This document shows, piece by piece, positions 2,144-5,562 of a DNA stretch of 5,836 nucleotides. Source of the DNA: a virus. Lineage: Duplodnaviria > Heunggongvirae > Uroviricota > Caudoviricetes. How positions within the stretch are numbered: position 1 is the first letter of the stretch; every line of letters starts with the position of its first letter. The notes beneath the pieces are model-generated. The model saw only the letters and a program-made list of their open reading frames with translations. It did not search any database and was not told the DNA's origin. Where the stretch lies: IMG/VR virus record IMGVR_UViG_2545824709_000006; one strand, written 5' to 3'. A program made the position numbers and the translations under genes.

Positions 2144-2527
2144 ATGCGTGATATTCAGATGGTTCTTGAGCGTTGGGGAGCGTGGGCGGCTAATAATCAT
2201 GAAGATGTGACCTGGTCGTCCATTGCCGCCGGTTTTAAGGGATTAATTACTTCAAAAGTAAAATCTCGCCCGCAATGTTGTGACGATGACGCGATGATTA
2301 TTTGCGGGTGCATGGCCCGTCTGAAAAAGAACAACAGCGATTTGCACGATTTATTAGTAGATTATTATGTAGTCGGTATGACATTCATGTCACTGGCAGG
2401 TAAGCATTGCTGCTCTGATGGTTATATCGGGAAAAGGTTACAGAAGGCTGAGGGCATAATTGAAGGGATGTTAATGGCATTAGATATCCGGTTAGAGATG
2501 GATATCGTTGTTAATAACTCTAATTAA
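2144..2527 (+). CDS. quuD: Q-family late-gene antitermination protein, 127 aa
   Basis: ATG at 2144. Product [26 protein letters not shown]...[16 protein letters not shown]... matches DLP12 QuuD (YbcQ) as I recall it. The in-frame TTG at 2129 reported by the ORF track is a less likely start. Confidence 0.85.
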
Positions 2528-2560
2528 TATGCCAATTGTTTACTAAAAATTATTAAAAAT

Positions 2561-2578
2561 GGGGCGTTGAGACGCCCC
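2561..2578 (-). terminator. Intrinsic terminator for - strand transcription (distal nmpC terminator); also shields quuD from antisense read-in
   Basis: GGGGCG / CGCCCC 6-bp GC stem with a 6-nt loop. On the - strand it is followed by ATTTTTAATAATTTTT; on the + strand it is followed by an A-rich run (CAAAAATAAA), so it should be far weaker for + strand transcription. Confidence 0.55.
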
Positions 2579-2644
2579 CAAAAATAAAGGGTAATATATA
2601 ACAGAAGGTTTATATAGTTAGAAGCAAGGTTGTGCTCCTAAAGG

Positions 2645-2700
2645 AAGTGGCTTGAGGGAGCCACTTATATGTTGGGGAGGCAAAGCCTCCCGCAACATAT
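2645..2700 (-). terminator. Tandem stem-loops immediately 3' of the nmpC stop codon (proximal terminator or mRNA-stabilising hairpins)
   Basis: Hairpin 2667-2700: ATATGTTGGGGAGG / CCTCCC(G)CAACATAT, a 14-bp stem with one bulge and a 5-nt loop. Hairpin 2645-2666: AAGTGGC / GCCACTT. On the - strand they lie 15-70 nt after the nmpC stop and are followed by TTCCTTTAGG. The first is followed by CTTTT on the + strand, so partial bidirectional activity is possible. Confidence 0.5.
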
Positions 2701-2715
2701 CTTTTAGTAATCAAA

Positions 2716-3798
2716 TTAGAACTGGTAAACCATACCTACAGCAACGATATCATCGGTAGCAACGCCAGATGCTTTCGTGAAATCGCTCTTATCAATCAGG
2801 TTGATTTTGTAATCAACAAAAGTGGACATATTTTTGTTGAAGTAATAGGTTGCACCTACATCAATATATTCAACCAGGTCCTGATCACCCCACGCACCCA
2901 AGTCTTTTCCTTTAGATTGCAGGTAAGCAACGGACGGACGCAGACCGAAGTCGAACTGATATTGTGCAACTACTTCGAAGTTTTGTGCTTTGTTGGCAAT
3001 ATGGTTATTACCAAAAACAGTCATGTTCTGGGTTTCAGAATAGGTGGTAGCCAGATAGATGTTGTTCGCATCATATTTCAGACCAGCTGCCCATACTTCA
3101 GCATTTTGACCAGATGCATTCAGGCTGTTGTTACCGTAGATAACCTGATTATTAGTGCGGTCAGATTTAGCATAGGTTGCACCTACACCGAATCCTTCAT
3201 ACTCATAAGTAGTGGAGAAACCGAAACCATCACCATTAGCTTCAGTTACGTCAGTGCGGTCATTTTTACCCTGATACTGAGCAGCAAAGTTCAGACCATC
3301 AACCAGACCAAAGAAGTCATTGTTACGATAAGTTGCAACACCTGTGGTGCGACCAGTCATGAATACATCTGTTTGGGTCCAGGTATCGCCACCGAATTCT
3401 GGCAGAACGTCGGTCCATGCACCAATATCGTATGCTACACCGTAGTTACGGCCATAATCGATGGAGCCGTAGTCACCGAATTTCAGGCCAGCGAAGGCAA
3501 GACGGGTTTTATCTTTGGAGGAACCTTGAGATTCAGCGCGGTTGCCTTTGAATTCATATTCCCACTGACCGAAACCAGTCAGTTGATCGTTGATTTGGGT
3601 TTCACCTTTGAAGCCAAGACGGGCATAAGTAGTATCACCATCATCTGCATCATTAGAGGAGAAGTAGTGCTTAGCATTAACTTTCCCGTACAGATCCAGC
3701 TTGTTACTGTCTTTATTATAAATTTCAGCTGCCTGAGCAGACATCGCCATCAGTACTGATGCAGCTACAGCAGAAATTGCCACTGTTAATTTTTTCAT
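2716..3798 (-). CDS. nmpC: Outer-membrane general porin of the OmpC/OmpF/PhoE family (NmpC/OmpD-like), 360-aa precursor, apparently intact
   Basis: ATG is the complement of 3796-3798, with an AAGGG Shine-Dalgarno upstream. N-terminus [30 protein letters not shown] is a classic signal peptide; the C-terminus ends ...VYQF with the terminal Phe typical of beta-barrel OMPs. Porin motifs such as LPEFGGDT and YDANNIYLA are conserved throughout. The longer track ORF (2716..3858) adds a 20-aa upstream extension that I reject. Confidence 0.9.
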
Positions 3799-4385
3799 CG
3801 TGAGCCCTTTTTTTGAACTATTATTAAAAAATGATGTCACTGCGCGATAAATATTCATCTAATCAATGTGATTATTTCAAGATGTAAGTTTTGGTTTCTC
3901 ATTTGATTTGTGAAGTAGATCTCTATTTTTATCTGAACTTTTTCTATCGAATCCTATTCATGGCTCTTGGCTGAATAAAAATAAATCTATTGGCCAATTT
4001 ATATTAATGGCTGTTATTTATAAGTGCTCTATAATTTGAAGGTTCAATTTAAACCAGCTAAAAATAACGCTGGAAATTATTTGTTGGTTATTTGTTGAGA
4101 TTTGCTTATGTATTTGTAGTGGTGTTTTCAATACTCGGTAGCATTCTCGCAAATATCATTTAGTGGTTTACGTACGTAAAAAATTGGTTATGCTGTTAAG
4201 AGTGGTTACTTCGTCACACAGCTTAAACCCGCCGTCGAGCGGGTTTTTCCATTTTTTGAGTCTCGATATTAGCTGATAACCCAATACCTGAGTTATTCAC
4301 TGACTCCGAGTCTGTTACGTTTCTGCTTTTTTGCGATACGTTGTATTCCCTCAATTTACACCCGCTTTGTCTGCGAGGTGGGGTT
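3799..4385. promoter_or_regulatory. Roughly 590-bp AT-rich divergent intergenic region holding the nmpC promoter and 5'UTR (- strand) and the leader upstream of essD (+ strand)
   Basis: No convincing ORF on either strand and markedly AT-rich. Contains a perfect TATAAT hexamer at 4030-4035 (+) without a good -35. Exact promoters could not be fixed by eye. Confidence 0.4.
4225..4257 (+). terminator. Intrinsic terminator on the + strand about 130 nt upstream of essD (candidate tR'-like late-leader terminator)
   Basis: AAACCCGC (4225-4232), loop CGTCGA, GCGGGTTT (4239-4246), all eight pairs Watson-Crick, followed by TTCCATTTTTT. On the - strand the same hairpin is followed only by TTTAAGC. Confidence 0.55.
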
Positions 4386-4601
4386 ATGAAATCCATGGAT
4401 AAGTTAACAACGGGTGTCGCCTATGGCACCTCAGCAGGTAGTGCCGGTTACTGGTTTTTACAGCTGCTCGATAAAGTCACGCCCTCACAGTGGGCAGCAA
4501 TAGGTGTGCTGGGTAGCTTGGTATTTGGCCTGCTGACGTACCTGACAAACCTTTATTTCAAGATTAAAGAAGATAAGCGCAAGGCTGCGAGAGGTGAATA
4601 A
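4386..4601 (+). CDS. essD: Class II holin (phage 21 S-like pinholin), 71 aa, with dual-start motif
   Basis: GAGGTGG precedes ATG at 4386. Product [71 protein letters not shown] has two hydrophobic segments and a charged C-terminus. Met1-Lys2-Ser3-Met4 gives two in-frame starts, the antiholin/holin arrangement known for S21. The track ORF 4341..4601 has a 15-codon extension that I reject. Confidence 0.9.
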
Positions 4602-5098
4602 TGCCTCCATCATTACGAAAAGCCGTTGCTGCTGCTATTGGTGGCGGAGCAATTGCTATAGCATCAGTGTTAATCACTGGCCCAAGTGGTAACGATGGTC
4701 TGGAAGGTGTCAGCTACATACCATACAAAGATATCGTTGGCGTATGGACTGTATGTCACGGGCATACAGGAAAAGACATCATTCCCGGTAAAACGTATAC
4801 CGAAGCAGAATGCAAAGCCCTCCTGAATAAAGACCTTGCCACGGTAGCCAGACAAATTAACCCGTACATCAAAGTCGATATACCGGAAACAACGCGCGGC
4901 GCTCTTTACTCGTTCGTCTATAACGTGGGCGCAGGCAATTTCAGAACATCTACTCTTCTTCGCAAAATAAACCAGGGCGATATCAAGGGCGCATGTGACC
5001 AGCTACGTCGCTGGGCATACGCTGGCGGTAAGCAATGGAAAGGCCTGATGACTCGTCGTGAGATTGAGCGTGAGGTCTGTTTGTGGGGGCAACAATGA
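4601..5098 (+). CDS. rrrD: SAR (signal-anchor-release) endolysin, T4-lysozyme-like muramidase, 165 aa
   Basis: ATG at 4601 overlaps the essD stop (TAATG). The N-terminus [27 protein letters not shown] is a Gly/Ala-rich weakly hydrophobic SAR domain, followed by the catalytic region [25 protein letters not shown] containing the Glu/Asp/Thr residues of T4-type lysozymes. Matches phage 21 R / RrrD as I recall it. Confidence 0.92.
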
Positions 5099-5562
5099 GC
5101 AGGGTAACCGCGATTATCTCCGCTCTGGTTATCTGCATCATCGTCTGCCTGTCATGGGCTGTTAATCATTACCGTGATAATGCAATCGCCTACAAAGAAC
5201 AGCGCGATAACAAGGCCAGTGAACTGGAGAAGGCGAACGCCACCATTACTGACATGCAGCAGCGCCAGCGTGATGCTGATGCACTCGATGATAAATACAC
5301 GAAGGAGTTAGCTGATGCGAAAGCTGAAAATGATGCTCTTCGGCGCAAGCTTGATAATGGTGGTCGGGTGCTCGTCAAAGGAAAATGCCCTGTGCCATCC
5401 TCAGCCGAAACCTCCAGCGCCTCCGGCATGGGCAATGATGCCACCGTCGAACTCTCTCCAGTTGCTGGACGAAACGTTCTCGGTATCCGGGACGGAATTA
5501 TCCGCGACCAAACAGCACTGAGAACGCTTCAGGAATACATCAGGACGCAATGCCTTCGATGA
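5095..5562 (+). CDS. rzpD: Rz-like i-spanin (inner-membrane spanin subunit), 155 aa
   Basis: ATG at 5095 overlaps the rrrD stop (ATGA). Product [38 protein letters not shown]...[17 protein letters not shown]... has an N-terminal TM segment and a coiled-coil-like periplasmic part, and is very similar to lambda Rz as I recall it. The alternative GTG at 5083 is less likely. Confidence 0.88.
5315..5521 (+). CDS. rzoD: Rz1-like o-spanin (outer-membrane lipoprotein) embedded in the +1 frame of rzpD
   Basis: ORF lies entirely inside rzpD in the +1 frame. Product [44 protein letters not shown]... has a signal peptide with a lipobox-like VVGC and a proline-rich mature region, as in lambda Rz1. Exact start and mature length are uncertain. 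Confidence 0.72.

Follow-up and report, generated by a model that had tools for sequence, protein, structure and literature searches.

The stretch of DNA analysed here in full (5,836 nucleotides (nt); IMG/VR record IMGVR_UViG_2545824709_000006; hereafter the window) is the Q-to-lysis stretch of a DLP12/PA-2-type lambdoid prophage, in which the antiterminator gene quuD and the lysis genes essD, rrrD and rzpD are separated by a minus-strand porin gene, nmpC. Positions 4166-4257, between the porin gene and essD, most probably form the Q-dependent late control unit of this prophage, composed of a late promoter (pR'), a Q-utilisation site and a terminator (tR'), a reading to which we give a probability of about 0.78. 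This is an unannotated representative of a known kind of late control unit, and it is homologous to the pR' of prophage Sp5 of Escherichia coli Sakai, whose start has been mapped. An earlier sequence-only reading had proposed that a hairpin upstream of essD belongs to a leader unit of the pR'-tR' type, and comparison with other phages supports that proposal, with a different promoter from the one it had favoured. The parts of the unit are as follows.

4167-4172, + strand: -35 element TTTACG, homologue of the Sp5 -35, with a 16-nt spacer to the -10
4167-4180 (-34 to -21), + strand: inverted repeat TTTACGTACGTAAA, candidate Q-binding element, the left half of which is the -35 TTTACG
4189-4194, + strand: -10 element TATGCT of pR', aligning with TATCAT of the mapped Sp5 pR'
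4201, + strand: predicted start A4201 (+/- 1 nt), homologue of A746 in the Sp5 locus (L007)
4203-4217, + strand: conserved initial transcribed region GTGGTTACTTCGTCA(C) with a small 5' hairpin GUGG/UCAC, conserved in the relatives found by BLAST
4225-4257, + strand: intrinsic terminator tR', stem-loop 4225-4246 (+25 to +46), T-tract 4244-4248 and then 4252-4257 (to +57)
4258-4385, + strand: read-through 5' untranslated region (UTR) of essD, with a ribosome-binding site GAGG at about 4375-4378

In the mechanism that we propose, a sigma-70 promoter TTTACG-N16-TATGCT, probably constitutive, would initiate at about A4201. Without QuuD, polymerase would stop at the hairpin and T-tract between +25 and +57 and release a leader RNA of about 48-55 nt, leaving essD-rrrD-rzpD silent. 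QuuD would engage the polymerase near the promoter, probably through the -35-overlapping repeat together with a promoter-proximal pause, and the modified, terminator-resistant polymerase would read into essD-rrrD-rzpD or, in a complete phage, into all late genes. The genes that such a circuit would connect are all on the same strand, with a Q gene of the PF06530 family upstream of the unit and the late (lysis) genes (4386-5562) downstream of it.

2144-2527, + strand: quuD, Q antiterminator of the Q21/PF06530 family (Pfam PF06530, E = 3.5e-53)
4386-4601, + strand: essD, P21-type holin
4601-5098, + strand: rrrD, endolysin
5095-5562, + strand: rzpD, spanin (Pfam hits for the three lysis genes: PF04971, PF00959 and PF03245)

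Q21 itself is also assigned to PF06530, and QuuD matches the Q21 structures 6P18/6JNX in the Protein Data Bank (E = 7.6e-7). For terminator read-through that depends on Q there is indirect support from phage 434B, in which this very DLP12 segment replaces the phage's own Q gene, late promoter and lysis genes; because this phage is viable, the segment should hold a working Q-dependent late promoter.

The position of the promoter is given by homology. When 4150-4400 was compared with phage genomes by BLAST, about 40 porin-carrying phages matched over the full length, while several hundred Stx (Shiga toxin) and other lambdoid phages matched window positions ~4166-4248 only, and these shorter matches fall where the Q gene ends or immediately behind it. 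In phages of the Min27/933W type, for example, the Q stop lies at 1514 and the match at 1501-1582 (locus L004), and in PhiR49_2 and Stx2_12E129 the Q stop lies at 1463 and the match begins at 1501. The Q proteins of these phages all belong to PF06530 and are 77% (Min27/933W type), 48% (PhiR49_2) and 48% (Stx2_12E129) identical to QuuD. Aligned together, the sequences form one conserved block (...CGTAAAAA..TAnnnTGnTAAGAGTGGTTACTTCGCCACACAGCTTAAACCCGCCG..CGGGTTTTT) with unrelated DNA on both flanks; in phage SfII the block follows two minus-strand genes and precedes the holin gene. The DNA 3' of the hairpin differs between phage lineages, and the promoter-leader-hairpin block is constant.

The Sp5 pR' start was mapped by differential RNA sequencing and the 3' end of its RNA by Term-seq 258 nt downstream, with an RNase E cut between GU and AUU at +173 (Sy et al. 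2020, PMC7547250). In the Sakai sequence the published start, the 258-nt length and the RNase E site fit one arrangement only, in which transcription begins at L007:746 (the bracketed A of GATAAG[A]GTGG) from a promoter TTTACG-N16-TATCAT at 712-739, GUAUU lies at 917-921 and +258 is the last T of a T-run at 998-1003 that follows a hairpin at 975-997. Direct homology between Sp5 and the window runs from about -36 to +48 and takes in the -35 TTTACG, the palindrome, the -10, the mapped start and an early hairpin with its T-run. By this homology, the window should carry a sigma-70 promoter with a defined start at A4201, which corresponds to K-12 NC_000913.3:577,229; between the -35 and the end of the terminator, K-12 matches the window at every base and PA-2 departs from it at a single stem position. 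As the hairpin then occupies +25 to +46 and the T-tract reaches +57, the leader is predicted to be about 50 nt long, as in phage 21, rather than the ~200 nt expected earlier. A start directly after quuD was also considered (2528-2715), but no + strand promoter was called there, and the stretch belongs to the porin cassette, which has a minus-strand terminator in this place.

The same arrangement recurs widely. A scan of viral contigs with the core motif of the leader returned 120 loci, and a PF06530 Q gene lies upstream on the same strand in every one of them that has enough upstream DNA, with the Q stop 10, 22 or 34-45 nt, or else 0.6-2.9 kb, from the start. Seen from the protein side, all 74 of the QuuD loci with enough downstream DNA carry the leader motif, at a distance from Q of 1,673-1,693 nt in 73 and 2,451 nt in one. 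Across 45 distinct upstream types the -10 has T-12 in 42, A-11 in 45 and T-7 in 44, and positions -10 to -8 vary freely. These three bases lie outside the search pattern and are near-invariant while the middle bases vary, so the hexamer has the signature of a real -10 element.

On its own sequence statistics, the terminator is only moderately unusual. Its stem AAACCCGC/GCGGGTTT (4225-4246) encloses the loop CGTCGA and is followed by TTCCATTTTTT to 4257; the fold has an energy of -12.2 kcal/mol (z = -2.3). The + strand terminator is thus present as the sequence-only reading had described it, and it is strand-specific, since on the minus strand only TTTAAGC, and no T-run, follows the hairpin. 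It also lies about 130 nt upstream of the first lysis gene, as had been noted, with 129 nt from the hairpin end to the essD ATG at 4386, and thus between the region of the presumed pause and the late genes. However, the window holds eight terminator-like sites against 4.4 +/- 2.3 expected and is not enriched for them, so the case for 4225-4257 rests on comparison. All 58 distinct downstream variants have a GC-rich hairpin with a T-run, which starts between +42 and +66 and follows several unrelated stems. Across 14 diverse leaders, pairing in the terminator helix reaches 88%, compared with ~40-60% in controls with slid partners, and one A-U/C-G double change is seen; the small 5' helix GUGG/UCAC is 100% paired, with G-C changed to G-U in 5 of the 14. 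These helices were scored explicitly, as RNAalifold on a MAFFT alignment of the 14 leaders missed the terminator, replaced stems being out of register. Two alleles of the 3' arm (4239-4243) are common, GCGGG in the window and K-12 and GCTGG in PA-2 and 16 viral loci, and the latter weakens the stem from -11.7 to -6.5 kcal/mol.

That the late unit is displaced from quuD by nmpC, another earlier claim, is borne out by the distances, with 1,674 nt from the Q stop to the predicted start in the window against 10-45 nt in insert-free phages. The intervening DNA is a moron with the following parts.

2507-4165, no strand assigned: insert comprising the porin 3' UTR with its terminator, the porin gene and AT-rich porin upstream DNA (left boundary approximate)
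2716-3801, - strand: nmpC/lc porin gene, intact (Pfam Porin_1, E = 3e-153; the PA-2 lc record J02580 covers the same gene)
2561-2715, - strand: porin 3' UTR, the IpeX region of DLP12/PA-2, with a minus-strand terminator at 2578-2561 (terminator scan)

An empty-site comparator is provided by E. coli 28RC1 (L131), which has the same ybcL..ylcG-Q backbone and a predicted start 22 nt after the Q stop; its DNA becomes homologous to the window again, abruptly, at 4166 and stays so up to 4248. At the left edge, protein homology between QuuD and Q933 ends after RLEMD, near window position 2506. From these breaks near 2506 and 4166 it follows that ~1.66 kb (2507-4165) replaces ~60 nt of the insert-free arrangement, including the original 3' end of Q. 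The stretch 2528-2715 is found beside porin genes in phage P7 and others, and hence belongs to the porin cassette and not to Q. The late unit would originally have stood directly after the Q stop, and the minus-strand porin cassette would then have been inserted between the two. The window thus has no promoter immediately downstream of Q, and adjacency of Q and pR' is ancestral without being required for function. E. coli KKa019 (L130) was rejected as a second empty-site comparator, as it has no leader motif within 2.5 kb of Q and is uninformative.

The Q/pR' junction is a recurrent cargo site. Among L010-L129 it holds many unrelated cassettes of 0.6-2.9 kb, almost all on the minus strand. The porin accounts for 37 loci; other cassettes encode a KAP-family NTPase that matches PDC-S20, a PADLOC candidate system (E = 3.5e-176), or a protein of the NA37 family next to a partner of 398 aa, and several consist of two genes without a family match. 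The survey thereby flags the junction as a cargo hotspot. In the porin 3' UTR of the window (2528-2715, minus strand), two further hairpins lie at ~2650-2700, in addition to the strong terminator at 2578-2561, with no Rfam match.

The best candidate for the Q-binding element is the inverted repeat TTTACGTACGTAAA. At -34 to -21, every one of 14 Q clusters carries an inverted repeat that is typical of it (for example TTTACGATCGTAAA, AACGCGTACGCAAA, GCGCGGTCCGCA, TGTTATAACA, TGGAATTCCA and ATTCGTTACGAAT), close clusters share or nearly share one, and within a cluster the repeat and its Q stay together whatever the length of the insert. The transcribed part of the leader, by comparison, is exchangeable between types (L015 is an example). 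The pairing may alternatively reflect linkage by descent. With loops of only 1-3 nt, a dyad site for a protein is favoured over an RNA hairpin; the palindrome was accordingly rejected as an RNA hairpin or terminator, and the run that flanks it is A-rich in most types. From the repeats at -34 to -21, candidate binding sites can be named for some ten Q subtypes. For the sigma-dependent pause element (SDPE), the best but weak candidate is TACTTC at 4207-4212 (+7 to +12), of the pattern TAC(T/A)T(C/T/A), in which the last base is C in the window, T in Q933-type phages and A in others. The sequence TAAGAG, which recalls the TAAGCT of phage 21, was rejected as a pause element: it lies at -4 to +2, the mapped Sp5 start falls inside it and it is too far upstream.

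The region of the start has been annotated before in other terms. The PA-2 record J02580 (1986; L002) marks a "CRP binding site" at 1730-1750, equivalent to window 4201-4221 or +1 to +21 of the predicted leader (GTGGTTACTTCGTCACA), and a second one at about window 3906-3926, upstream of the porin gene. T4214, which makes the half-site TCACA, occurs in the porin-type loci and a few other lineages (L049, L066, L072 and L097).

Among known systems, phage 21 offers a curated counterpart (Q21, pR'21, Q-binding element (QBE), SDPE and tR'; OL657228; Yin et al. 2019), with a Q protein of the same PF06530 family as QuuD. In both, the -35/spacer region of a sigma-70 promoter (a predicted one in the window) holds an element for protein binding, which is the QBE at -27 to -12 in phage 21 and a candidate only in the window; both have a very short leader whose transcript folds into a terminator that is complete by about +50 (annotated +3 to +50 in phage 21); and in both a P21-type holin, a signal-arrest-release (SAR) endolysin and spanins follow. 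The differences are in the DNA itself: no similarity was noted between the two control regions, the QBE of phage 21 is a direct repeat (ATTGAGCA, AATGAGCA) whereas the conserved element of the window is an inverted one, phage 21 has the pause element TAAGCT at +2 to +8 whereas no clear one was found in the window, and the phage 21 -35 lies 7 nt after the Q stop whereas the promoter of the window is 1.67 kb from Q. The pR'-qut-tR' unit of phage lambda follows the same logic, in which transcription from a constitutive late promoter ends within the leader until Q lets it run on into S, R and Rz. Its leader is about four times longer than the one predicted for the window, and its promoter lies next to Q. 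Lambda Q is of another Q family, PF03589, and the lambda 6S RNA is 194 nt long.

The Sp5/933W-type pR', the source of the RNA StxS (PMC7547250), is homologous in the control region, with Q proteins 77% identical, and differs in what surrounds it. The Sp5 unit lies 22 nt after Q and has a second terminator at +258, and the last 74 nt of its RNA form the Hfq-binding StxS, whereas in the window the holin gene follows 129 nt after the sole terminator. No homologue of Sp5 +49 to +258 was found in the window, where homology stops at 4248, and Rfam gave no match; because this region has no homologue, the window does not encode StxS. In Sp5, the early hairpin, which looks canonical, lies at L007:769-790 and is followed by a run of seven T (to 796; +24 to +51), upstream of the published tR' at +258; it goes unmentioned in the StxS paper.

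Several observations weigh against assigning 4166-4257 to Q-dependent late control. The -35 and -10 match the consensus at 8 of 12 positions only and were not called by a simple scan, and no K-12 transcript ends near 577,229 and 577,27x were found in the available text of the supplements to two Term-seq papers. In the motif-found loci, the invariance at -4 to +17 is partly imposed by the search pattern; the relatives found by BLAST, which are free of that constraint, have the same -4 to +17 block. The initial transcribed region yielded no convincing -10-like pause element, and TACTTC is without the key final T. A 258-nt RNA accumulates in Sp5 despite the homologous early hairpin, so that this hairpin must either be leaky in Sp5 or give a ~50-nt product that went undetected. 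Finally, the literature attributes the essD promoter to RpoE, and primer mapping puts this published promoter at about window position 3847 (PMC7918800).

Three other places for the promoter have to be weighed against A4201. The sequence-only reading had pointed to a TATAAT at 4030-4035, from which a leader of ~220 nt, like the lambda 6S RNA, would run into the same 4225-4257 terminator. The hexamer is indeed there on the + strand, it is a perfect -10, and among porin-type loci it is kept in 39 of 43 (TATGAT in three, TGTAAT in one). It is, however, no more than chance would give in AT-rich DNA: the window has two copies against 4.2 +/- 2.1 expected in shuffles, and this one sits in DNA of 26-33% GC. 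A good -35 is missing, as had been conceded, with an unusable ATGGCT at 17-nt spacing and no extended -10, and the promoter scan of the window did not call the site. The hexamer also lies inside insert-specific DNA, absent from every phage with pR' directly after Q, homology to which resumes only at 4166, and the start homologous to the mapped Stx one lies 171 nt further downstream. The hexamer is not part of the conserved late unit, judging by these alignments, and we consider a promoter there highly improbable. As little credence attaches to a second alternative, raised beside the first, that the hairpin serves solely to shield the lysis genes from read-through transcription, coming from upstream or antisense to the porin gene, while essD is transcribed from a promoter of its own in 4258-4385. 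The hairpin would stop a + strand transcript of any origin, and host-regulated expression of the DLP12 lysis genes has been reported (PMC7918800). The promoter scan calls no promoter-like site in 4258-4385, though, and K-12 is without 16 nt of that stretch. In other lineages, moreover, the same block precedes unrelated DNA (tRNAs, a methylase, stx further on), from which it follows that the hairpin travels with the promoter and not with the holin. The third alternative places the main promoter at the RpoE-dependent essDp near the porin start, with QuuD acting together with RpoE and the 4225 hairpin attenuating a long leader. For control by Q and RpoE, PMC7918800 cites Rueggeberg et al. 2013 and 2015; it describes a cloned regulatory region of the lysis operon from "-121 to +650", numbered after Rueggeberg et al. 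2015. The forward primer of that work anneals at window 3726-3745, and taking this site as -121 puts the published +1 at ~3847, ~540 nt upstream of essD. RpoE-like GAACT (3815-3819) and TCACT (3837-3841) are present in the window, and essDp could coexist with pR'. Against it, essDp falls within the porin insert, ~350 nt before the conserved pR', and nothing corresponds to it in relatives with a 77% identical Q and a pR' mapped right after Q; known Q proteins load on sigma-70 paused complexes; and the genomic SELEX text, in the part available, gives an RpoS-holoenzyme peak in the insH-essD spacer and no essD entry in its RpoE table. Taken together, the comparisons point to 4167-4201 as the Q-responsive promoter rather than essDp, which we regard as improbable in that role.

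A further alternative concerns the hairpin and leaves the promoter in place. The early hairpin could act mainly as a leaky pausing or stabilising element, or could form the 3' end of a leader-derived small RNA that works in trans, with the real stop further on, as at +258 in Stx phages. Sp5 does make its 258-nt RNA through the homologous hairpin, and terminated pR' leaders can be regulatory RNAs, of which StxS is an example (PMC7547250). In the window, on the other hand, the terminator scan found no second terminator-like site between 4257 and essD; the T-run persists in 58 of 58 variants even where the stem has been replaced, which is the signature of an intrinsic terminator; and the curated terminator of phage 21 is in the same place. 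We therefore judge a mainly non-terminating hairpin unlikely and retain 4225-4257 as the predicted tR'. In Sp5 itself, the early hairpin may serve as a leaky first terminator and so control the share of pR' transcription that arrives at StxS and stx.

A broader model, to which we give somewhat less than even odds, extends this reading to the whole QuuD/Q933 branch of the Q21 family. Its QBE would be a dyad over the -35 (TTTACG-NN-CGTAAA here) that co-evolves with the Q subtype, the leader and early terminator would be a shared, exchangeable module, and the Q/pR' junction would be a recurrent landing site for minus-strand accessory and defence cassettes, with Q acting on a promoter up to 2.9 kb away. 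Were this true, pR' transcripts of Stx phages would meet an unrecognised first terminator at about +48, before the published tR' at +258, which bears on how much pR' transcription reaches stx without Q.

DLP12 is the classic qsr' prophage of E. coli K-12, and its late promoter is unannotated in the records examined: it is marked neither in the MG1655 RefSeq entry nor in the 434B record. The block is present in 3,730 of 5,426 complete E. coli genomes, and among the 12 matches listed no feature lies under the match. Pas small RNAs were checked as a possible prior description of the late unit and are at different loci. A pR' at K-12 577,229 would give the essD-rrrD-rzpD operon a precise predicted start, and it conflicts with the published RpoE essDp ~350 nt upstream, on which reporter fusions have been based.

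Compared with E. coli F8111-1SC3 the window shows 100% identity, and with K-12 ~94%; in K-12, nmpC is broken by IS5, whereas the porin gene of the window is intact. When the whole window was searched against Rfam at E <= 1, the sole result was a sub-threshold match to STnc560, far downstream. The left end of the window (1-~345) is what we take to be the 3' end of an IS3-family element (an open reading frame ending at 300, then terminal sequence), inserted upstream of ybcN, and the genes that follow are:

left part of the window, + strand: ybcN, ninE, ybcO, rusA and ylcG

At the other side of the unit, the 16 nt that K-12 is without (CTGCTTTTTTGCGATA) are at window ~4326-4341 in the essD 5' UTR; they are missing from MG1655 and present in PA-2, and K-12 lacking them, they appear to be dispensable. 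The N-terminus of EssD, MKSMDK (4386-4397), is the dual-start motif (Met1/Met4) that the records of phage 21 and 434B mark for the S21 antiholin/holin pair.

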